From positions 96,001 through 160,000 of the forward strand of contig OY762069.1 in NCBI GenBank assembly GCA_963665095.1: 64,000 nt of DNA. Reading direction: 5' to 3'. The notes beneath the pieces were generated by a model. That model saw only the letters and a program-made list of their open reading frames with translations. It ran no database searches and was not told where the DNA came from. The DNA is from an uncultured Desulfobacter sp. (lineage in GTDB: Bacteria > Desulfobacterota > Desulfobacteria > Desulfobacterales > Desulfobacteraceae). Every line of letters begins with the position of its first letter. The stretch's first letter is position 1. Of the stretch, positions 11,004-56,395 are shown in pieces. Made by a program: the position numbers and the translations under genes.

Positions 11004-11119
11004 TTTCAAGATCACATCGTTTTGGGGGACAGCGTTTTGGGGGACAGCATACCGATTATCAAAATTTGATCCTGTTCCCCTTAGTTTGATAAAACACACT
11101 GGAATTGTTGGACTTGAAT

Positions 11120-11160
11120 GCCAAAAGGGGCTGATTGAAAAACCAATCAGCCCCTTTGGC
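11120..11160. terminator. Hairpin between convergent genes
   Basis: GCCAAAAGGGGCTGATTG-AAAAAC-CAATCAGCCCCTTTGGC. Confidence 0.7.
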
Positions 11161-11182
11161 AGTTGTATTATTCCTCTGCTGT

Positions 11183-13213
11183 TTAAATCGCCACGTTCAA
11201 ACCGATCAGCACATTAAATCCCGATAACGGGTAGAGTGTTTCACTGCCGGGATCTCCACCGCCGTAACCAACAGCGCTTTCATCAAAAATGTTGTTGGCA
11301 GCAGCATAGAGCTCAACTTTGCCGAATTGTTTTGCATATCGGGCGTTTAAAAGCCAAAAGCCTTCTTCTTCATTGGTGTTGGCATAGTTGAGATATTGCC
11401 TGCCTGTATAAACAGGATTAATTGAAATATCGCCCAAAGTTTTGTGGCGGTACCCCAGCCTCAACGCAAATATTATTTCCGGCACACCGGTCAGGTGATT
11501 CCCGGAATAGCCCACGCCTTCGCTGATAAAATCATCAAACTTGGACTCCTGCCAGGTAAAACTGGCCGATGAATAAAAGCCATGGGGCAGTGTGGCATGG
11601 GCCCCCATTTCCACACCCTTGGTGCTGGTTTCTCCCGCGTTTTCATATTGTCCGGTCCAAAAGTCTGCGGTAGGCCTGACAAATTTATCGGTTACTTTTT
11701 GCCAGAAAACAGCGACATTGTAATCCAGCCAATGGGAAATATTGCCGCGAAAACCAACTTCATAAGCATAAAGCTTTTCCGGTTCCAGCTCACCATTGGT
11801 GAACCATTGCCGTAATCTTACCGGGCTTTTTATGCCGCTGTTAAATCCTGCGAACAGGTTTACTTCATCACACAACTGGTAGGTAAGGCCGATCTTGGGG
11901 CTGACAGCGTCGTGTTCTGAAGACCAGGTAGTGGAACTTGCCATATTGGCGACCTGGGCCAGATCAAAATAGTCGTAGCGAATGCCCGCGCTGATGGTAA
12001 GTGCCTCGGTTATTCCCAGCTCATCCTGCAGATACGCCGCATAACTTTTGTCTTCCCGTGAAAAGTCTTTGTTTTTGGATGTCAGGTCATGAAAACTTGT
12101 GGCAATATACCTTATTCCATGAAGATCATGATACCGATACTCCCCGCCAATCACCAGCTTGTTTGCCATGCCCCCGATGTCATGGTTAACGGTCATGCGT
12201 ACTTCCGGGTGCACCACCGTTGAATCAGCACCCATATAAAAATAACCGCTGAAGGATCTCCAGCTTGTATCCTGGGCCTCCAATTTGCACATGAGGTCAT
12301 GGTCTCCAAGGCTTTGGTCATAAACAAGGGCGCCTAAGCTTTCTTCGGTTTCAAAATAGTAATCAGGCCCGGCATTGGGATTCTGGGTGGGATCTTCATC
12401 AAATTGTTCCCGGGTCAGGCTTGCCGTGTAATTCCCCTTTGAATCCTTGTAGGACCCATGGAGAGTAAGGCTGGAATTATTGTTCAGGGTACGCTTCAAG
12501 GTGGTATATACATTGTTGACATCAAAATACCCCTCATCCTGATAGGAATCTTCACGTGATACGGAAGCGTCAACGTAGTATTCCCAATTTTCATTGGCGC
12601 CGTTTATCACGGTGTAGCCGCTGCCGCCACCCAGGCTGTTATAGGCAATGCCGGCCTTGGCTTCCAGGGGCGCCTTGGCCTGCCGTGTAATGATGTTGAT
12701 AACGCCGCCCAGGGCCTGGTCCCCATACTCAGCCGACGGGGTTTTGATGATCTCAATGCGCTCTATATCATGCACAGCCAGGCGCCCGGCCCTCATGGCC
12801 CCAGTGCCATTATTGAATTCAATGCCGTTGACCATCACCAGCATTCCCCACTGGGAAACTTCACTGCCCCTGCTGCTCACCGAAATATCGGCATCCACAG
12901 AGTTGGCGGGGAAAAAAAGGCCTGGTATATTCATCTCCCGCAGCAGGGTGAGCGGGTTGTAATGGCCCGGATATTTTTCTATCTCTTCTTTGGATATGAC
13001 GGTGATATTGGTGGGTATTTTATCCACTTGGGTGTTCATTTTGGTTGAGGTGACAATGATTTCGCCAAGATCGGCAGCGTTTAAATCGTTTTTATCATCC
13101 CGGGCCCACCCGGCAGGGCCGGATAAAAATAGGATCATGAGGGTGATAAAGGCAACGTAAAATATTGATATACGGTTACTGCGTAATCCTTTCTCCTTAA
13201 CTGCGTCAAACAT
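11183..13213 (-). CDS. TonB-dependent receptor
   Basis: EIIVTSTK, DIERIEIIKTPSAEYG, LEPEKL; start at ATG 13213 after AAAGGA. Confidence 0.9.
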   Translation of the reverse strand: MFDAVKEKGLRSNRISIFYVAFITLMILFLSGPAGWARDDKNDLNAADLGEIIVTSTKMNTQVDKIPTNITVISKEEIEKYPGHYNPLTLLREMNIPGLFFPANSVDADISVSSRGSEVSQWGMLVMVNGIEFNNGTGAMRAGRLAVHDIERIEIIKTPSAEYGDQALGGVINIITRQAKAPLEAKAGIAYNSLGGGSGYTVINGANENWEYYVDASVSREDSYQDEGYFDVNNVYTTLKRTLNNNSSLTLHGSYKDSKGNYTASLTREQFDEDPTQNPNAGPDYYFETEESLGALVYDQSLGDHDLMCKLEAQDTSWRSFSGYFYMGADSTVVHPEVRMTVNHDIGGMANKLVIGGEYRYHDLHGIRYIATSFHDLTSKNKDFSREDKSYAAYLQDELGITEALTISAGIRYDYFDLAQVANMASSTTWSSEHDAVSPKIGLTYQLCDEVNLFAGFNSGIKSPVRLRQWFTNGELEPEKLYAYEVGFRGNISHWLDYNVAVFWQKVTDKFVRPTADFWTGQYENAGETSTKGVEMGAHATLPHGFYSSASFTWQESKFDDFISEGVGYSGNHLTGVPEIIFALRLGYRHKTLGDISINPVYTGRQYLNYANTNEEEGFWLLNARYAKQFGKVELYAAANNIFDESAVGYGGGDPGSETLYPLSGFNVLIGLNVAI

Positions 13214-14762: not shown

Positions 14763-14814
14763 TCTTAACGGTTCAAAATCACCGGCTTGCCCGTGTGAAT
14801 TTTGTTTGTTGAAA
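14763..14814 (-). other. attC-like site (52 bp)
   Basis: TTTCAAC-AAACAA-AATTCACA-CGGGCAAGCC-GGTGATT-TTGAACC-GTTAAGA, 8 bp after the ATPase stop. Confidence 0.65.
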
Positions 14815-16039: not shown

Positions 16040-16087
16040 TTTTAACGTGAAAATCACCGGTTTATCCGGTGCATTTTCTGGTTAGAA
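16040..16087 (-). other. attC-like site (48 bp)
   Basis: TTCTAAC-CAGAA-AATGCACC-GGATAAACC-GGTGATT-TTCAC-GTTAAAA; L'' carries one extra base relative to L'. Confidence 0.8.
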
Positions 16088-17041
16088 TTAAGTATTGTGT
16101 CCCCCGAATTTCCCGCATCTCCAATCAGACCGGGCCTCTTTTTTAAAAACTGTTCTCACCTTATCCATAAAGCTTCTCAAAATAGGCGAGATCCATTTTC
16201 CCCGATACCATATCATCAAGACAGCAGTTTCAAGGGGCTCCTGTTCCCAATTCAGAGATGTCAGGTTACCTTCAGAAATCTCTGCTGCCGCTGCAATATC
16301 GGGCATTATGGTAATTCCGAGACCCTTTGAGACACACTGTTTAATCGCCTCTATACTGTTCATTTCCACTAAAGATGCTGTTTCAATTTTTTCTTGCATG
16401 AGCCACTGTTCAACAATCATCTTATAACTGCAATCATGCTTAGGTAAAAAGACGATTTCACCAGATAAATCTGTAATCAAAACGCTTTTCTTTTGGGACA
16501 GGTAATGAGTAGGGGAAGCAAACATTGCCAGAGTTACTGTTCCTAAAAACTCAGTTTTCAGTTCTGAAAAATCAACAGAGTCAGCCAACAGAAAAGCAAT
16601 GTCGGTAATTCCGGATTTAAGCTCATTGGGCAGGTTTTGATATTCACAGCTAGCCACGTCAAAGTCTATATTGGGATAGGATTTGTAAAATTCCTGTAGG
16701 ATATCAGGAAGAAAATAGGTTCCAAGGGTTTGGGGAATTCTTAAAGACAGTTTCCCTTGGGGTGTTTTTACTTCAGAAACTGTTGCCAATGCTTCTTTTT
16801 CCATCGCACAGATTTTCTGTGCATATTGTACCAGATCCCTGCCAGCCCCTGTTAATTCAATGGTTTTTCCCTTCCTCTGAAAAAGGCGCTTTCCTAACTC
16901 CTCTTCCAAAATTTTAATCTGGGCAGATATGGTGGACTGGGCATAGTTCAATGTTTCGGCAGATTTTCTAAAATTGAGCAACCTCGCCACAGTTAAAAAG
17001 GTCTTCAGGTTTCGGATCTCCAAGCAGCCCCCTCTGATCAT
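16088..17041 (-). CDS. LysR family regulator
   Basis: NFRKSAETLNYAQSTISAQIKILEEELG. Confidence 0.93.
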   Translation of the reverse strand: MIRGGCLEIRNLKTFLTVARLLNFRKSAETLNYAQSTISAQIKILEEELGKRLFQRKGKTIELTGAGRDLVQYAQKICAMEKEALATVSEVKTPQGKLSLRIPQTLGTYFLPDILQEFYKSYPNIDFDVASCEYQNLPNELKSGITDIAFLLADSVDFSELKTEFLGTVTLAMFASPTHYLSQKKSVLITDLSGEIVFLPKHDCSYKMIVEQWLMQEKIETASLVEMNSIEAIKQCVSKGLGITIMPDIAAAAEISEGNLTSLNWEQEPLETAVLMIWYRGKWISPILRSFMDKVRTVFKKEARSDWRCGKFGGHNT

Positions 17042-17204: not shown

Positions 17205-17726
17205 ATGAAAAAGCAAGTATCTTTAACATTTTTGCTGATTGTTAGTATCGTCTGTTCTATTCCATTGGCGGCCTTGTCTGGAGAAAACCCTCCGCCTTAT
17301 CAAGTAAAAGTTAAAAGCCGTGAAGTAACAAACAGGATTGTTGAATCCTATGTCCGAGGCCATAAGGTGTTGGCAGATCAGCCTAAAAATTTTGGAGCCG
17401 ATGATTTGGCACCGACCCCGCCGGAATACTTGGCCGTAGCCTATAGCACCTGTGTTGTATCCACCCTTCGGTTCGTGGCGATGCTGGACAAGCTGGACAT
17501 CAAAAATATTGAAGTCCAAGTGGAAGGAGAGGTTGACTTCTCAAAAGCAATGGGGCTTGATACGACGAAAAGGGCTGGACTTTTTGGCTTAAATGTCAAG
17601 ATCAGCTTTGAGTCGACCATGACCAAAAGCGAACAGCAAGCATTTGTCGATAAAGCAATGGAACGGGGTGCTGTTCTTGACAATGTTCGTAACAAAACAC
17701 AAGTCTTATATGAAATTATAAACTAA
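17205..17726 (+). CDS. OsmC family protein with signal peptide
   Basis: DQPKNFGADDLAPTPPEYL...STC. Confidence 0.85.
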   Translation: MKKQVSLTFLLIVSIVCSIPLAALSGENPPPYQVKVKSREVTNRIVESYVRGHKVLADQPKNFGADDLAPTPPEYLAVAYSTCVVSTLRFVAMLDKLDIKNIEVQVEGEVDFSKAMGLDTTKRAGLFGLNVKISFESTMTKSEQQAFVDKAMERGAVLDNVRNKTQVLYEIIN

Positions 17727-17841: not shown

Positions 17842-17930
17842 AAAAAACGTTGAGTTAAGCGGAAAAATTATAACCCAAAAACAACGTAAAACCCGGCGGG
17901 TACTTTTCCGTCTTCAACTCTTTGTTACAT
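17842..17930 (-). other. attC site (89 bp) of IS91-transposase cassette copy 1
   Basis: ATGTAAC-AAAGA-GTTGAAGA...GCTTAAC-TCAAC-GTTTTTT. Confidence 0.8.
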
Positions 17931-19654
17931 TAACCGGGTCGAAGCCTCGCAGTTGATTTCTTGGGTAAAAGCAGGGGAATCCTTATTTTCAAACTTAGAT
18001 TTAACAGCACAGATTCTAAAATTTGCCTGGTAAAATTGAGTGAGCATTAAGATTCTTCCTTCTACTTAATCCGGTCAGGCTTGAAAAAGAGCCGAAAAAC
18101 CTGGTACCGGAGCGGATTGCCGATACGAGTCCCTGACAGGGAACTGCCTATTTTGATATCGGTAATTGTTTCCAAAGTAAAGCTTTTTATAGTTCCCCTG
18201 ATTTAGCCGGAATTTGCTTGGCCTTGGTTTTTGGTAAGTCGTCTTTCACCACGTTGCCATGACCGTCCAGCACCAGGATCGTTATCATGTTCCCTTTGCC
18301 GCAGGCCGGGCATTGAGGCGTCTGTTCTTTCAGGGGTTCAGGATCAGGGGTATCCCGGTCATTCAATGCCTGGCGTATTTCCGATATATTTCGTCCTGCC
18401 TGCCCGTTGGCCAGAAACCCATAATATCTGATCCGATGAAAGTGTTTTGGAAGAACATGCAAAAGGAAACGATCAATGAAGCTCATTACCGGTAAAGAAG
18501 TTGTTTCCCACTTGGATTTATTCCGGGTGTTTTTAAACCAGAACTCCACAGTCTCGTTGTTAACGGATATAATCCTGTTGTTGCTGATGGCTGTTGAATG
18601 GGTGTATCTACCGATATATTTAACGACTTCGGCTGGACCTGAGAATGGTGGTTTGGAATATACCACCCAGTCTTTTGGAGCGGTATGGTACAGCCATTGC
18701 CTGAATGCGCAGGGTTTTGAAAGATGAGCCAGTTCATCCGGGATGTTTAATCGTCCTCGACCGTGGGCTGCAATAAGGCCGCTAAGGAACTTTGCCCTGA
18801 ATACATTTGAAAGCGCTTTGACCGGAAACAGGAATGTTGAGCTGTACTTGGGCTCCACCCATTCCCCATAAGTGTTTATTCCGCCTGCAGTGACAATGAA
18901 ATGGATGTGGGGATGCAGCCAGAGTTTGCCGCCCCAGGTGTGGAGGATACCGTAGAACCCGATCTTGGCTCCAAGACGCTTTGGATTCTCCCCGAATTCC
19001 AGCAGGGTCTGGGAGGCGCTTTCAAACAACAGGTCATACATTACCCGCCGGTTGAACCGGCACAAAGGGTTGAAGATATCCGGCAATGTGAAAACGCAGT
19101 GGTGATAGGACACCGGAAGCAGATCGTTGATCCTGGCCGTCACCCATCTGTGACGGGCGATATTGTTTCAACCCGGACAATGGCGGTTCCGGCAGGAGTT
19201 GTATCCTTTTTCAAGGTGGCCGCATGTGTCGCATAGCTCCCAGTGGGTGCCAAATTCTCCGCGTCGACAATGCTCGATATCGTACATAACCTTGTGTTGC
19301 CTGGGGTGCAGGCGGTGTGCTGATCTGAAGGGAGGACCGTATTTTCTAAATATATCTCCGACGCTTGGACCGGTTTCGGGTTTTTCAGGGAGCTTGGTAT
19401 GGCTGCAAAGTGTTTTCATCGGTTATCGAAGCCCGCAGCGTAGGAGAACGGGAGGCGCAGGCTGCAATGATTTATGACAGGCGTGGCATTTGCGCAGTTT
19501 GCAAATGACATGACTGGCAGAAATCTTGCGTCTGGGCGTCCCCCCGTTCTCCGGAAAAGTTTGCACCATAGATTATGAAGTCCTTATTTTATAGGCGTTT
19601 CGAGCTCTGCAGTTGGCTTCAAGATGTTGCATTCACCGTCCAGGTTTAATGTAA
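17848..19654 (-). mobile_element. Gene cassette carrying an IS91-family transposase, copy 1 (1807 bp)
   Basis: Near-identical to 37795..39420; identity ends at the GTT cores on both sides. Confidence 0.8.
18187..19419 (-). CDS. IS91-family (Y2 HUH) transposase, 410 aa if the in-frame TGA at 19168-19170 is read through; otherwise a pseudogene
   Basis: CDTC...NSCRNRHCPG*, HHCVFTLP, LHTWG, HPHIH, YIGRY, HRIRYYGFL. The two listed ORFs are in the same frame. Confidence 0.85.
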
Positions 19655-19674
19655 CGTCAAAATCTGCGGTTTAT

Positions 19675-21803
19675 GCCAGGTAGCCGGGGACCGTTACCGG
19701 TCCCAAGCCCCTTAAGAACCGGACGTGAGACTTTCACCTCATCCGGCTCAAGCATTGATAAGGCGTGTTGCCACACCCAACAGTTGTCTTCGTTTCCAAC
19801 GAGCTTTGAGATAGTCGGCCCATGCAGGATCGTACGGGTTAACATTCGCTCTAATCTTGATATGTCTGGTAAGCCGGGTCGCGCCTAGTAAAATCAGGGG
19901 TTCGGGATTACCTTTTTCCATGAATCGCCAGTCTCGACCTTTGATTCTCCGGTAATACTTGTTTTTAACCCATCCTTTAGATTTCTTTGGATGCCTTCGC
20001 CTGGCCCATTGCCATGTCATTTGCCAAAATGCATGGTCCAAATCCCCAAACACCTTCCGGCTTACGACGTGTTTGTAATAATTTGCCCAACCGCGTATGA
20101 TACTATTCAGTTTGGCAATAACAACATCGGTTCGCAGGGTTTTATTGGCATGCAGATAGTCTCTGACTTTCGCTTTTATGCGTTTAATGCTGGATTTTGA
20201 AGGTTTTATCAGAAGTTTGCCTTTGTATTTTCTGACATTGAAGCCAAGGAAATCAAAGCCATCATCAATATGTGTGATAATGGTTTTCTCTTTTGATAGT
20301 TCAAGTCCCCTTATTTTAAGGAACTCTTCGATCAAAGGCTTGACTTTATGTTTGAGCATTTCCGGAGAACGGCCCGTTACAATGAAATCATCAGCACACC
20401 TGACAAAATGAATTTTGTCAGGCTTCTTGAAGTTATCATCAAGGAGGGGCTGGATACCGTCAAGAGCCATATTGGCAAGCGTCGGTGAAATTATTCCACC
20501 CTGTGGAGTCCCTTCATTTGTCGAATTAAATATATGTTTCTCAAGATAACCGCACTTGAGCCATTGTTTTAATTTCTTCTTGTTCATGGGAATGTTTTCA
20601 TCCAACCATTTATGATCGATAAAATCAAAACAGCCTTTGATATCTGCCTCTAAAATCCAGTCAGCACTACCTTTCCGTCTTAACGCATTGTAAATCGCTC
20701 CTATGGCATCCTGGGCCGAGCGGACTTTCCTGAATCCATAGGAATGATGATCCGCTGTGGATTCAGATACCGGATCAAGCCCTAATAAATCAAGGGCCTG
20801 TTCCACCCGGTCATGCATGGCCGGTATGCCTAATGGTCGTTTCTTACCATTTTTCTTTGGGATATAAATACGTTTCAGCGGCTTAGCCTTATATTCGGGA
20901 AGATTAAGATTCTTGAGCGTTTCCCATCGCTTCCGAGGTGTATCAATTAACATATTGTCAACACCTGGGGTTCGTTTTCCACTATTGGATATTACCCGTT
21001 TGATAGCAATAAGTTTTGCCGCAAGCGAGTTGGACAGCAGCCTTTGAAGGCCGCGTACCTTTTGTTTTAATCCTTGCTTAACTGCCTTCACGATACGCGC
21101 TTGTATACGGAATACTGTCTGTCTGTGCTTATCCCAGTCAATGAGATCCCACACATTCTTCAAGCCCATACGGCCGTCAACATCATGTAATGATATCATC
21201 CATCCACACCAGTATAGTTATTCCGTTCAAATCATTTCCCGTGATTCAACACCGTGCCGGAAGTCTGCACACTTTCGTGTCCGGGCAAATTTTGAACCCG
21301 TATCTGATCCATTACAGAACAGCATTCGCTTTCTCCAGCGTTCCTCTACCCGCATCCCCATAGGCCACCCTTGCGGCTGGCTGTCCTTACGGGGAAGGAG
21401 AGATACGGGCTTACCAAGTTCCACTTTCAACACACAATGGGTTAGCGTCTGTCTATCCGCCGGAGGGATCATTGATTACGTGAAGCAACTACGGAATACT
21501 CCAACCATACCTCTTGCCTTTTGGCCCAGGCCTGTCAGCATCTTTGGCCTGTCAAACATAACGACGTTTATTAACAGTTCACATATGTTACGCATACCAT
21601 CGTTCCTAGCTCCCATCCGGGTTGATGCTCCCAGAGTTGAGGTCCTCTTACGATTATCTCTTCCGGCCATAGGCCAAGGGCTTCATTGTCATCCGGGCTT
21701 CACACAAAAACATTACTGCTAGTGCATGCCGGAGTAGAAAACTGCCGGTAATACGGCAGGTTGGGGCGAGCCCAACATTATTAAAAGCGACTTCTTGTCG
21801 CAA
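19675..21803 (-). mobile_element. Group II intron (chloroplast-like/IIB-type features)
   Basis: 5' end TTGCGACAAGAAGTCGC; domain V GAGCCGGATGAGGTGAAAGTCTCACGTCCGGTTC; domain VI ends CTACCTGGC; internal RT ORF. Confidence 0.9.
19748..21199 (-). CDS. ltrA: Group II intron reverse transcriptase/maturase without an endonuclease domain
   Basis: TPGVD, RPLGIP, YGFR, DIKGCFD, GTPQGGIISP, RCADDF, IRGWANYY, NPYDP. Confidence 0.93.
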   Translation of the reverse strand: MISLHDVDGRMGLKNVWDLIDWDKHRQTVFRIQARIVKAVKQGLKQKVRGLQRLLSNSLAAKLIAIKRVISNSGKRTPGVDNMLIDTPRKRWETLKNLNLPEYKAKPLKRIYIPKKNGKKRPLGIPAMHDRVEQALDLLGLDPVSESTADHHSYGFRKVRSAQDAIGAIYNALRRKGSADWILEADIKGCFDFIDHKWLDENIPMNKKKLKQWLKCGYLEKHIFNSTNEGTPQGGIISPTLANMALDGIQPLLDDNFKKPDKIHFVRCADDFIVTGRSPEMLKHKVKPLIEEFLKIRGLELSKEKTIITHIDDGFDFLGFNVRKYKGKLLIKPSKSSIKRIKAKVRDYLHANKTLRTDVVIAKLNSIIRGWANYYKHVVSRKVFGDLDHAFWQMTWQWARRRHPKKSKGWVKNKYYRRIKGRDWRFMEKGNPEPLILLGATRLTRHIKIRANVNPYDPAWADYLKARWKRRQLLGVATRLINA

Positions 21804-34684: not shown

Positions 34685-34733
34685 GTATAACGCAAAAATA
34701 ACCGGCATCATCCGGTTCATTTTTTTGTTGAGT
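34685..34733 (-). other. attC-like site (49 bp)
   Basis: ACTCAAC-AAAAA-AATGAACC-GGATGATGCC-GGTTATT-TTTGC-GTTATAC. Confidence 0.8.
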
Positions 34734-37788: not shown

Positions 37789-37877
37789 GCTAAACGTTGA
37801 GTTAAGCGGAAAAATTATAACCCAAAAACAACGTAAAACCCGGCGGGTACTTTTCCGTCTTCAACTCTTTGTTACAT
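37789..37877 (-). other. attC site (89 bp) of IS91-transposase cassette copy 2
   Basis: Same as 17842..17930 except that R' reads GTTTAGC. Confidence 0.8.
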
Positions 37878-39420
37878 TAACCGGGTCGAAGCCTCGCAGT
37901 TGATTTCTTGGGTAAAAGCAGGGGAATCCTTATTTTCAAACTTAGATTTAACAGCACAGATTCTAAAATTTGCCTGGTAAAATTGAGTGAGCATTAAGAT
38001 TCTTCCTTCTACTTTATCCGGTCAGGCTTGAAAAAGAGCCGAAAAACCTGGTACCGGAGCGGATTGCCGATACGAGTCCCTGACAGGGAACTGCCTATTT
38101 TGATATCGGTAATTGTTTCCAAAGTAAAGCTTTTTATGGTTCCCCTGATTTAGCCGGAATTTGCTTGGCCTTGGTTTTTGGTAAGTCGTCTTTCACCACG
38201 TTGCCATGACCGTCCAGCACCAGGATCGTTATCATGTTCCCTTTGCCGCAGGCCGGGCATTGAGGCGTCTGTTCTTTCAGGGGTTCAGGATCAGGGGTAT
38301 CCCGGTCATTCAATGCCTGGCGTATTTCCGATATATTTCGTCCTGCCTGCCCGTTGGCCAGAAACCCATAATATCTGATCCGATGAAAGTGTTTTGGAAG
38401 AACATGCAAAAGGAAACGATCAATGAAGCTCATTACCGGTAAAGAAGTTGTTTCCCACTTGGATTTATTCCGGGTGTTTTTAAACCAGAACTCCACAGTC
38501 TCGTTGTTAACGGATATAATCCTGTTGTTGCTGATGGCTGTTGAATGGGTGTATCTACCGATATATTTAACGACTTCGGCTGGACCTGAGAATGGTGGTT
38601 TGGAATATACCACCCAGTCTTTTGGAGCGGTATGGTACAGCCATTGCCTGAATGCGCAGGGTTTTGAAAGATGAGCCAGTTCATCCGGGATGTTTAATCG
38701 TCCTCGACCGTGGGCTGCAATAAGGCCGCTAAGGAACTTTGCCCTGAATACATTTGAAAGCGCTTTGACCGGAAACAGGAATGTTGAGCTGTACTTGGGC
38801 TCCACCCATTCCCCATAAGTGTTTATTCCGCCTGCAGTGACAATGAAATGGATGTGGGGATGCAGCCAGAGTTTGCCGCCCCAGGTGTGGAGGATACCGT
38901 AGAACCCGATCTTGGCTCCAAGACGCTTTGGATTCTCCCCGAATTCCAGCAGGGTCTGGGAGGCGCTTTCAAACAACAGGTCATACATTACCCGCCGGTT
39001 GAACCGGCACAAAGGGTTGAAGATATCCGGCAATGTGAAAACGCAGTGGTGATAGGACACCGGAAGCAGATCGTTGATCCTGGCCGTCACCCATCTGTGA
39101 CGGGCGATATTGTTTCAACCCGGACAATGGCGGTTCCGGCAGGAGTTGTATCCTTTTTCAAGGTGGCCGCATGTGTCGCATAGCTCCCAGTGGGTGCCAA
39201 ATTCTCCGCGTCGGCAGTGCTCGATATCGTACATAACCTTGTGTTGTCTGGGGTGCAGGCGGTGTGCTGATCTGAAGGGAGGACCGTATTTTCTAAATAT
39301 ATCTCCGACGCTTGGACCGGAAAAGTTTGCACCATAGATTATGAAGTCCTTATTTTATAGGCGTTTCGAGCTCTGTAGTTGGCTTCAAGATGTTGCATTC
39401 ACCGTCCAGGTTTAATGTAA
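37795..39420 (-). mobile_element. IS91-transposase cassette, copy 2 (1626 bp; 181-bp deletion)
   Basis: Aligns to copy 1; the deletion lies between CCGG repeats and removes the start codon. Confidence 0.8.
38134..39320 (-). pseudogene. IS91-family transposase, 5'-truncated, with the same in-frame TGA (39115-39117)
   Basis: Protein identical to copy 1 except for the last residue and the missing N-terminus. Confidence 0.8.
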
Positions 39421-39462
39421 TGTGAAAATCACCGGTTTATCCGGTTCATTTTTTTGTTGGAA
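39415..39462 (-). other. attC-like site (48 bp; GTT core reads ATT)
   Basis: TTCCAAC-AAAAA-AATGAACC-GGATAAACC-GGTGATT-TTCAC-ATTACAT. Confidence 0.75.
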
Positions 39463-45473: not shown

Positions 45474-45523
45474 ATTTAACGCAAACATCTGCGGCTTGTC
45501 CGTCAGCATGTTTGTTGTTAAAT
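45474..45523 (-). other. attC-like site (50 bp)
   Basis: ATTTAAC-AACAAA-CATGCTGA-CGGACAAGCC-GCAGATG-TTTGC-GTTAAAT. Confidence 0.75.
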
Positions 45524-56279: not shown

Positions 56280-56395
56280 CAGCAACTATTGCAGCATCTT
56301 TCACCCGTCACTACGGGTGAAAGATGCTTTTCAGGCAGGTCAGGCGGGGATAGTTGCGCTTCCATGAAAATCAGCCCCCATTTAGAATTTCATTT

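Follow-up and report, generated by a model that had tools for sequence, protein, structure and literature searches.

A cassette-shaped unit with an IS91-family transposase gene and an in-frame TGA at integron recombination sites of an uncultured Desulfobacter

What moves a transposase gene that is outlined like an integron cassette is the question raised by a 64,000-nt stretch of DNA from an uncultured Desulfobacter sp. (GenBank assembly GCA_963665095.1, contig OY762069.1). The stretch, here called the window, is positions 96001-160000 of a 6.9-Mb genome in one contig, and it holds two copies of a unit in which an IS91-family transposase gene is followed by a hairpin of the attC type, attC being the recombination site of integron cassettes. 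The genome holds four copies (A to D; Table 1) at 99-100% identity. Our answer is tentative: the unit may be a 1.81-kb IS91-family insertion sequence that has the shape of a cassette and is specialized on integron recombination sites. Moreover, the transposase frame contains an in-frame TGA, which is the most unexpected part of the element, and the UGA of this element is probably read as selenocysteine (Sec) with help from a hairpin just behind it.

The unit is a discrete mobile unit, present as four copies at four different attC cores. A repeat of 1.5-1.8 kb at at least 99% identity is not a product of chance, and the flanks of the four copies are unrelated on both sides. Copies A and B differ by 5 mismatches per 1,525 nt over 17845-19369 and 37792-39316 and by 5 mismatches per 124 nt over 19551-19674 and 39317-39440; copy B has a 181-nt deletion, equivalent to 19370-19550 of copy A, that takes out a palindrome and the first 15 codons of the gene. 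At the low-coordinate boundary, all four copies pass from unrelated flank into AAC-GTTGAG (AAC at 17846-17848). At the high-coordinate boundary, the common sequence ends at ATGTAAC (19649-19655), with the last C changed to T in copy B, and beyond it copies A, B, and C each run into a different but related short attC, which accounts for the weak similarity that continues for about 19 nt. Each of the four copies sits at an attC core within an integron or an attC cluster, and the 1.81-kb unit carries no tyrosine recombinase gene. Copies B and C have deletions and copy D is truncated, such that three of the four are damaged apart from the TGA; the full transposase frame is open, bar the TGA, in copies A and C.

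The minus strand is the sense strand of the transposase and the strand that had been described in an earlier note on this DNA. Read on it, the layout is host attC, G/TTACAT, gene, and an 89-nt hairpin composed of R'' (ATGTAAC), L'', loop, L', and G/TT. The earlier note had reported the unit as present twice, at 17848-19654 and 37795-39420; both copies are there and the minus-strand reading fits, but the genome total is four. We confirmed its description of a unit that starts G/TTACAT and ends in an 89-nt attC whose R'' is complementary to the first bases of the unit, and we found, as it had said, that identity stops at the GTT cores, on the low-coordinate side in all four copies and on the high-coordinate side in copies A, B, and C. 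The comparison across the genome and its relatives that it had called for mapped four copies bounded at G/TT and relatives that share the ends. Its statement that each copy directly follows an attC holds for copies A and B, except that the attC upstream of copy A is split by a group II intron at 19675. That the left hairpin is inside the repeat does not contradict the earlier note, as the minus-strand reading makes the hairpin the attC of the unit itself.

At its right end, the unit has a hairpin that shows all the structural hallmarks of an attC and shares the polarity of the host sites. Over its 89 nt (17842-17930), the site forms one hairpin that AAC/GTT closes and that leaves two bases of one arm unpaired. 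Its minus-strand order is R'' ATGTAAC (17930-17924), a 3-nt unpaired spacer, an L'' arm containing the two unpaired bases, about 45 nt of loop, the L' arm CCGCTTAACTC, a spacer AAC, and the G of R' at 17848; the TT at 17847-17846 belongs to the target and not to the element. The ATGTAAC...GTT closure, the 3-nt spacer, and the two unpaired bases are joined by a loop length that varies among relatives, and R'' deviates from RYYYAAC at one position. The L boxes, GTT-N-AAGC and GCTTAAC, resemble the classical 59-base-element consensus. Because the first bases of the unit pair with R'', a circle closed end to end would carry a complete attC. Unit and host sites (48-130 nt for the latter) were identified by a scan for AAC...GTT folds. 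The unpaired bases of four host sites in the window and of the unit's own hairpin all fall on the 3' arm of the plus strand, and it is this shared arm that gives the hairpin host polarity. In the array defined by IntI, the integron integrase, two host sites and the hairpin of copy D have their unpaired bases on the 5' arm of the top strand, and the same scan that found the host attC sites picked up the hairpin of copy D, in array orientation.

The left end is more than a cassette start. It is an inverted repeat of GGTTAATGTAAC at the other end, and at 12-13 nt it exceeds an R box; it starts GTTA in 11 of 12 sequences and ATTA in copy B. A 110-nt imperfect palindrome stands between this end and the start codon of the transposase, with a folding energy of -38.6 kcal/mol (DNA parameters). 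The palindrome is kept in eight relatives, down to 66% protein identity, with compensatory changes in the outer stem and a nearly invariant inner sequence, and it has been deleted in copies B and C and in the related elements L021 and L022, which amounts to four independent losses. A search against Rfam at a permissive threshold returned chance-level matches only. The palindrome may be a regulator in the 5' untranslated region or a single-strand origin.

The gene inside these ends encodes an IS91-type enzyme. Two open reading frames, 19419-19168 and 19143-18187, share one frame with a single TGA between them, and the 410-residue read-through protein matches NCBIfam NF033538 at 397 bits (cut-off 125) over model positions 2-355 of 356. 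Pfam matches were Y2_Tnp (PF04986, 2.6e-57) and Zn_Tnp_IS91 (PF14319, 1.5e-27), and the pairing of a Y2 HUH domain with the zinc-binding N-terminal domain of IS91 is obtained only with read-through of the TGA at codon 84. Purifying selection on the transposase is strong: between loci L007 and L109, dN/dS was 0.056 upstream and 0.112 downstream of the TGA, with dS saturated. The best plasmid-borne relatives in the plasmid collection are 43-46% identical, and none of the plasmid relatives there had a cassette context. No solved structure of a relative was found, and a protein search with the 83-residue N-terminal fragment gave only three matches.

Related elements share the same ends. A six-frame search of 61 genomes (G000 and 60 relatives) found the transposase protein in 28, and the same genus and family contain elements with 66-87% identity (L020-L025 and L047), to which pattern scans added L085 and L109. 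All 12 sequences compared begin GTTACATTAAACC or a near variant. The right end could be aligned in 10, leaving aside L085 (not alignable) and L047 (end unclear), and in these it carries GGTTAATGTAAC, or a sequence close to it, and then a hairpin with compensating arms and variable loop length; the hairpin closes ...CTYAAC/GTT in 9 of the 10 and otherwise in L025. A well-folded attC lies directly upstream of copies B and C, L020, L021, L023, L025, and L085, and is lacking at L022 (short contig), L024 (degenerate copy), and L109. The gene upstream of L109 is a divergent integron integrase gene (433.5 bits) that starts 128 nt from the element, and by its sequence context L109 appears to be the first unit beside intI, at the position expected for attI; the L109 site has no hairpin.

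Where the copies sit with respect to IntI is mixed. The one intact integron integrase gene of the genome lies at 910169-911113 on the minus strand (TIGR02249, 471.6 bits; cut-off 265). Copy D is 21 kb downstream of it and oriented as the array runs, and copy D and L109 are both G/TT-bounded units that point with an array. Copy C is near broken pieces of an integron integrase gene at genome positions 3348672-3354683. Copies A and B belong to an attC cluster that has no integrase and is some 800 kb away from the single intact intI, and the 64-kb window contains no IntI gene. An attI beside the genome's own intact IntI, sought for comparison with L109, was not located, and another open frame directly follows the gene.

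The bases next to the hairpin differ from those of free host sites. At 11 junctions the flank was GTTT in seven, GTTC in two, GTTG in one, and other in one, with no repeat beyond GTT. The base after GTT was A at none of the 11 junctions behind the element and at 8 of 10 unoccupied host attC sites (P of about 2e-4 by a hand-computed Fisher test). The core GTTRRRY expected to follow a cassette was likewise not the rule, with GTTA or GTTG behind the element at 1 of 11 junctions. Were IntI responsible, the bases behind the element would be the old core of the target and should resemble other cores, and for that reason the bias argues for the transposase; from the sequences compared, the base that is never A points to target choice by that enzyme. 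Moreover, the ends have the arrangement of IS91, in that the left end begins GTTA, the hairpin, a putative replication origin, is directly behind the gene, a tetranucleotide adjoins it, and the target is not duplicated.

How a transposase could produce such junctions can be pictured from the IS91 family. The Y2 transposase would nick the strand opposite its gene after xAAC beside the hairpin (oriIS), the nicked strand would be peeled off up to ...ATGTAAC (terIS) and released as a single-strand circle, and the circle would re-insert before a 5'-GTTY presented at the base of a folded attC, or at attI. With a geometry like the one reported for IS801 and IS1294, which have GTTC in both places, the junctions would fall no more than one invariant base from the IntI crossover. 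Indeed, the predicted transposase cut (after xAAC on the plus strand) and the IntI crossover (AA/C) are one invariant base apart, and the junctions therefore cannot separate the two.

The in-frame TGA raises a question of its own, namely whether the enzyme is made. The TGA is at codon 84 in all four copies, which were all inserted after it arose, and the frame is conserved on both sides of it. Of 32 other aligned IS91 loci, 31 have cysteine in the same column, and the sole exception, L027, from a genome of the same genus and 41-45% identical, also has TGA. The host is equipped for selenocysteine, with tRNA-Sec, selB (347.8 bits), selA (598.1 bits), a TGA-containing selD, and five TGA-containing genes of the formate dehydrogenase type. 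In three of its six known Sec genes (fdh1, fdh2, and fdh3), a hairpin starts 11-13 nt after the UGA, and fdh2 and fdh3 have an 11-nt spacer and a 7-bp stem, the same as the transposase hairpin, which is a candidate for a selenocysteine insertion sequence (SECIS). The stem is perfect in all three TGA-bearing members of the lineage (this genome, L085, and L109) and in none of six Cys-bearing members, which have a G.G mismatch or lack it. L085 and L109 reach the perfect stem by a different substitution than this genome does, and a quick tree places this genome's copy apart from L085 and L109. It follows from that split that TGA arose or was lost at least twice. Read-through as selenocysteine would hold the supply of transposase down and make it depend on SelB.

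Whether UGA is used more widely in the IS91 family was approached by a scan for C-x-[ND]-R-H-C-P-x-TGA-x7-W. Among 185,579 species, each represented by one genome, there were 16 matches, 4 of which are IS91 genes, with records assigned to Thermodesulfobacteriota, Desulfobacteraceae, Desulfobacterium, and one "Pseudomonadota" metagenome-assembled genome (MAG). A metagenome collection gave 36 matches, 33 of them IS91 genes. Among 39 TGA loci, some of them duplicates, the frame is full on both sides in 20 and broken by further stops in 10, and 9 run off the contig. Seven full-length sequences, mutually 66-83% identical, all have the TGA, and their nearest database relatives are many full-length Cys forms and seven clusters of 271-residue C-terminal fragments, which are the gene-caller rendering of the TGA form. 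The seven have a dN/dS of 0.06-0.21 on both sides of the TGA. Moreover, the proportion of synonymous differences, 0.45 overall, drops to 0.12-0.17 within the first 12 codons behind the TGA, which is the minimum of the gene, and an invariant hairpin, CCCGGC-AGUG-GCUGGG, lies at this dip, 13 nt downstream of the UGA. In an IQ-TREE tree from a quick rather than the careful search, 14 of 16 TGA-type rows fell in one 22-row subclade with 8 Cys rows nested in it, and the Cys label required 6 changes compared to 14.7 in shuffles, with none of 500 shuffles as low. We conclude that this diverged clade has the sequence signature of a UGA in use with an RNA element behind it, and a used codon there appears well supported. 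As for hosts, selB was above the cut-off in three of four distinct other host genomes. Most other TGA-bearing IS91 genes (L077, L079, and L092-L127) share a contig with a tyrosine recombinase gene 25-33% identical to IntI, and at L096 the recombinase gene is directly upstream on the same strand (coordinates checked). Since most other TGA-bearing loci carry the recombinase, the TGA feature spans the one-gene and the two-gene forms of IS91.

Which enzyme inserts the unit is not separable by sequence, although on that evidence the transposase seems the better candidate and IntI a serious one. Homing driven by the transposase of a cassette-shaped IS91 element is the answer we hold tentatively. Purifying selection argues for it, because a passenger gene moved by IntI would not need selection, and so do the 12-13-nt inverted repeat and the conserved 110-nt palindrome, neither of which a cassette needs. 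Several points weigh on the other side: the hairpin bears features read by IntI (unpaired bases on the correct arm, the spacer, and the R and L boxes) that the transposase does not obviously need, L109 is at an attI position 128 nt from intI, no copy was found with certainty outside an integron-type context (L022 and L024 are doubtful exceptions), and the target-base count is one of 11 junctions and 10 host sites chosen by our own fold scan. In another reading, the unit is a true integron cassette, the IS91 gene is a passenger, and IntI alone has moved all copies by attC x attC or attI x attC recombination. Such a cassette would account for boundaries at G/TT on both sides in all four copies, for an attC of the unit's own with canonical boxes and variable loop, for an R'' complementary to the cassette start, for the orientation of copy D downstream of IntI, and for L109 as first unit; the genome has an intact IntI, and if the TGA were a plain stop, the copies could not move themselves. 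Passage by IntI alone is nonetheless unlikely, as it leaves strong selection on the transposase unexplained, does not call for the inverted repeat or the palindrome, does not predict that the A of GTTA would be missing behind the element, and would require two copies to have reached an integrase-less attC cluster some 800 kb from the sole intact intI; four near-identical copies are also rare for cassettes. The earlier note had proposed that the unit moved by IntI rather than through ends of the insertion sequence type. The cassette anatomy that it described stands, but the contrast does not, because the ends also fit IS91 geometry. Boundaries away from GTT cores, which it had said would count against its proposal, were not seen in the four copies, while tetranucleotides of the IS91 type, which it had named alongside them, do fit as GTTY. 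For its suggestion that the transposase could mobilize arrays in trans, no evidence was found. A division of labor would reconcile the two enzymes, with the Y2 transposase copying out a single-strand circle equal to the attC bottom strand and IntI pasting it into attI or attC, and would make the unit a recombinase-less relative of the IS91 elements that have a tyrosine recombinase of their own. The strand predicted to be released (the plus strand of the window) has its unpaired bases on the 3' arm, like host attC strands of the same orientation, with agreement at all five window sites and all three sites of the IntI-defined array, and for IS91 only one single-strand circle is described as able to insert in the part of the source available (PMC13181058). 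Many IS91 elements, including most TGA-bearing ones, have an IntI-like tyrosine recombinase directly upstream, whereas the unit has none but resides in integrons; selection on the transposase and L109 at attI would fit as well. We consider this shared mechanism doubtful all the same, since the GTTY bias of occupied sites is unexpected if IntI picks the site and since no circle or empty site was seen in the contigs examined. As to those contigs, circle or empty-site joints were absent from the contigs of four public runs, where contigs break at the repeat; of 21 public runs listed, 20 contain all or some of the stretch, in every case in contig form, and none of the listed runs that contain it is an RNA run.

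Whether the TGA is simply an ordinary nonsense mutation is a separate matter, confined to the TGA and independent of the way in which the unit is moved. Four dead copies would then have been spread in trans or by IntI, and the hairpin would be a by-product of coding. A change from TGY to TGA takes a single step. The TGA form is rare (none in 400 other genomes of the order sample, in which the zinc domain is present in 137 of 401 genomes, and four true cases in the species scan), 10 of 30 assessable TGA genes carry further stops, and in this genome three copies of four bear other damage. Sequences behind the TGA are in general no richer in structure: for the 45 nt that follow it, folding in 30 distinct TGA sequences and 20 Cys sequences gave a median z of -0.67 versus -0.60 (P of 0.50). 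Many lone TGA lineages may be plain nonsense mutants. Finally, the loop AGAUGG lacks the GG start (GGU or GGC) of the host's six known SECIS loops, selB was not found in host MAG G431, a genome of uncertain completeness, and the spread of the copies carries no information on transposase function if IntI was what moved them. The candidate hairpin had no SECIS match in Rfam and gave chance-level matches only at a permissive threshold; that result is uninformative, because the genome's own selD SECIS was also unmatched (the fdh one matches SECIS_3). Against a nonsense mutation, the same codon has been hit in at least two branches of a small lineage, each time with a repaired stem, and again in the unrelated same-genus element L027. 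In the diverged subclade the TGA persists in intact frames that have a low dN/dS, with synonymous change held down just behind it, and the full frame is open in copies A and C. We conclude that an accidental stop is possible but somewhat improbable, and that reading of the UGA as selenocysteine is the probable state of this element. The most far-reaching combination, in which rolling-circle copy-out is gated by selenocysteine, IntI inserts the folded attC bottom strand, and the UGA is a recoding switch across the family, we regard as unlikely.

Table 1. Positions of the unit, its parts, and neighboring sites (window coordinates unless marked as genome; blank cells, nothing recorded)
Feature	Position	Strand	Remarks
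Copy A	17848-19654	minus	Repeat alignment 17845-19674
Copy B	37795-39420	minus	Own attC 37793-37877; TGA 39115-39117; repeat alignment 37792-39440
Copy C	genome 3330452-3332170
Copy D	genome 933698-932249	opposite	5'-truncated at the equivalent of 19295
IS91-family Y2 (HUH) transposase gene, copy A	18187..19419	minus	410 codons with the in-frame TGA read through
Own attC-like hairpin (oriIS-side end)	17846..17930	minus	Identical in 4/4 copies; single-hairpin fold
Left (terIS-side) end, cassette start G/TTACATTAAACC	19642..19655	minus	Conserved in 12/12 sequences compared
110-nt imperfect palindrome, GGAGAACGGG...CCCGTTCTCC	19443..19552	minus	Between left end and transposase start codon
In-frame TGA, codon 84	19168..19170	minus	Replaces the last cysteine of the CPxC knuckle, zinc-binding domain
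Candidate SECIS hairpin	19137..19156	minus	11 nt after TGA; 7-bp perfect stem CCGUCAC/GUGACGG; loop AGAUGG
3' half of host attC preceding copy A	19656..19674	minus	Judged against intact sites before copies B and C
Intact short host attC upstream of copy B	39421..39462	minus	TTCCAAC ... CCGGTGATTTTCAC, then A (normally G) and TTACAT
Group II intron	19675..21760 (5' limit approximate)	minus	Rfam RF00029 at 19675-19751; RF02012 at 21609-21760
Unoccupied short host attC	14763-14814		Same family as the upstream sites
Unoccupied short host attC	16040..16087	minus	Same short family
Unoccupied short host attC	34685-34733		Same short family
Unoccupied short host attC	45474-45523		Same short family

The surroundings of the unit include further attC-like sites and a second mobile element. 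The attC-like family of the window consists of hairpins of 47-52 nt with xxxxAAC, an AAAAT-rich stem, and GTTAxxx, and the units between these sites include a LysR-type gene (16088-17041) together with a gene at 17205-17726. Strong hairpins at 11089-11187 and 56280-56359 (-22 and -25 kcal/mol, DNA parameters), which the scan for AAC...GTT folds also picked up, are outside this short family. The group II intron is single copy in the genome, has a reverse transcriptase frame at 19748-21199, and interrupts the loop of the attC that precedes copy A, running in cassette direction. The 5' half of the attC that the intron cut was absent beside the 5' end of the intron and elsewhere in the window.

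We note other features of the copies and their relatives. The 5' cut of copy D (genome position 932249) adjoins the 3' end of a Fic-domain gene with the motif HPFxDGNGR, and the same junction recurs in contigs from runs of two other strains. Copy C, L021, and L022, from three genomes, have a similar GC-rich hairpin (ACGGCGGCT.CGCC...) right after GTT, while their upstream attC sites differ. Element L020 in genome G006, with an 87%-identical transposase, has one in-frame TAG within an otherwise full frame. A tRNA-Pyl gene (anticodon CUA) is found at 900717-900790 of the genome, about 10 kb from intI. The truncated IS91 gene L049 (G023:C1:4441300-4443000) has a TGA at another zinc-finger cysteine, the first of CxxC (query position 63).

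Such a unit matters for integrons, for recoding, and for annotation. A transposase unit with the outline of a cassette blurs the divide between cassette and insertion sequence, and it offers a route of multiplication for cassette-shaped DNA, here to four copies, along with single-stranded attC-like DNA in the cell. A conserved UGA at a zinc-finger cysteine would, if true, be a new kind of selenoprotein and a new throttle on transposition beside the frameshifts of other insertion sequence families. Should transposition be shared with IntI and gated by selenocysteine, integron cassettes would gain replicative multiplication, and transposition would be tied to selenium supply and SelB. A UGA switch across the family would, if real, be present in several IS91 lineages of selenium-using anaerobes. 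For annotation, gene callers break TGA genes into pieces of about 80 and about 270-320 residues or label them pseudogenes.

How the unit compares to the IS91 family depends on the feature considered. In the available part of one account, IS91-family elements make no target duplication and use a tetranucleotide target beside oriIS, which is CTTG for IS91, GTTC for IS801 and IS1294, and GTCC for IS1294b; oriIS is the right end behind tnpA with one or two subterminal palindromes, and terIS is the left end with a cleavage tetranucleotide of its own, GTTC in three of the four (PMC13181058). As far as that account goes, the unit is like all four in its Y2 HUH domain and zinc N terminus, its upstream terIS and palindromic downstream oriIS, the tetranucleotide next to oriIS with a similar one at terIS, the lack of clear duplication, and the expected single-strand circle. 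The unit is unlike them in that all of its sites are attC or attI-region cores and not any GTTC or CTTG, at least by comparison with what is described there. Moreover, its oriIS hairpin has full attC anatomy with a flank that is mostly GTTT, and its transposase has TGA for a zinc-finger cysteine and only distant plasmid relatives. Two-gene IS91 elements are annotated on plasmids as pairs of an IS91-family transposase and a tyrosine-type recombinase, and many TGA-bearing transposases are of this type; the unit, in contrast, is 1.8 kb, lacks the recombinase, and stands forward at an R' core like a cassette. ISShvi3 is an IS91-like element in a Shewanella integron that has been mentioned in passing.

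How far the unit is a cassette can be put in similar terms. Like cassettes, it has R''/R' and L''/L' boxes, an unpaired spacer, unpaired bases on one arm, and a variable loop, with the site at the 3' end of an array-oriented gene and an R'' complementary to the cassette start. Unlike cassettes, its cargo is a selected transposase whose family cuts at the same positions, and it has four near-identical copies, a 12-13-nt inverted repeat, and a following GTTY rather than GTTR. The enzyme of IS1111-attC elements is a DEDD transposase, and group IIC-attC introns combine a ribozyme with a reverse transcriptase. Both are described, in the parts of the sources available, as mobile elements specialized on attC (PMC9229058, PMC7923331). 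Whereas these interrupt the attC, the unit adds a complete cassette-like unit with an attC of its own.

Stop codons within transposase genes have a precedent in the UAG (amber) codon of Methanosarcina transposases, going by the available parts of three papers (PMC1976440, PMC1242214, PMC1914089). In the literature text available, supplements excluded, no description of a selenocysteine transposase was found, and the amber-containing Methanosarcina transposases were the only related precedent. A parallel to the UGA itself is offered by bacterial formate dehydrogenase and SelD, which likewise have UGA where homologs have Cys, a hairpin 11-14 nt downstream, and a host equipped with sel genes. Unlike those enzymes, the transposase has the residue as a ligand of a zinc finger and not at a redox center, and its hairpin has a loop that differs from the SECIS loops of its host.

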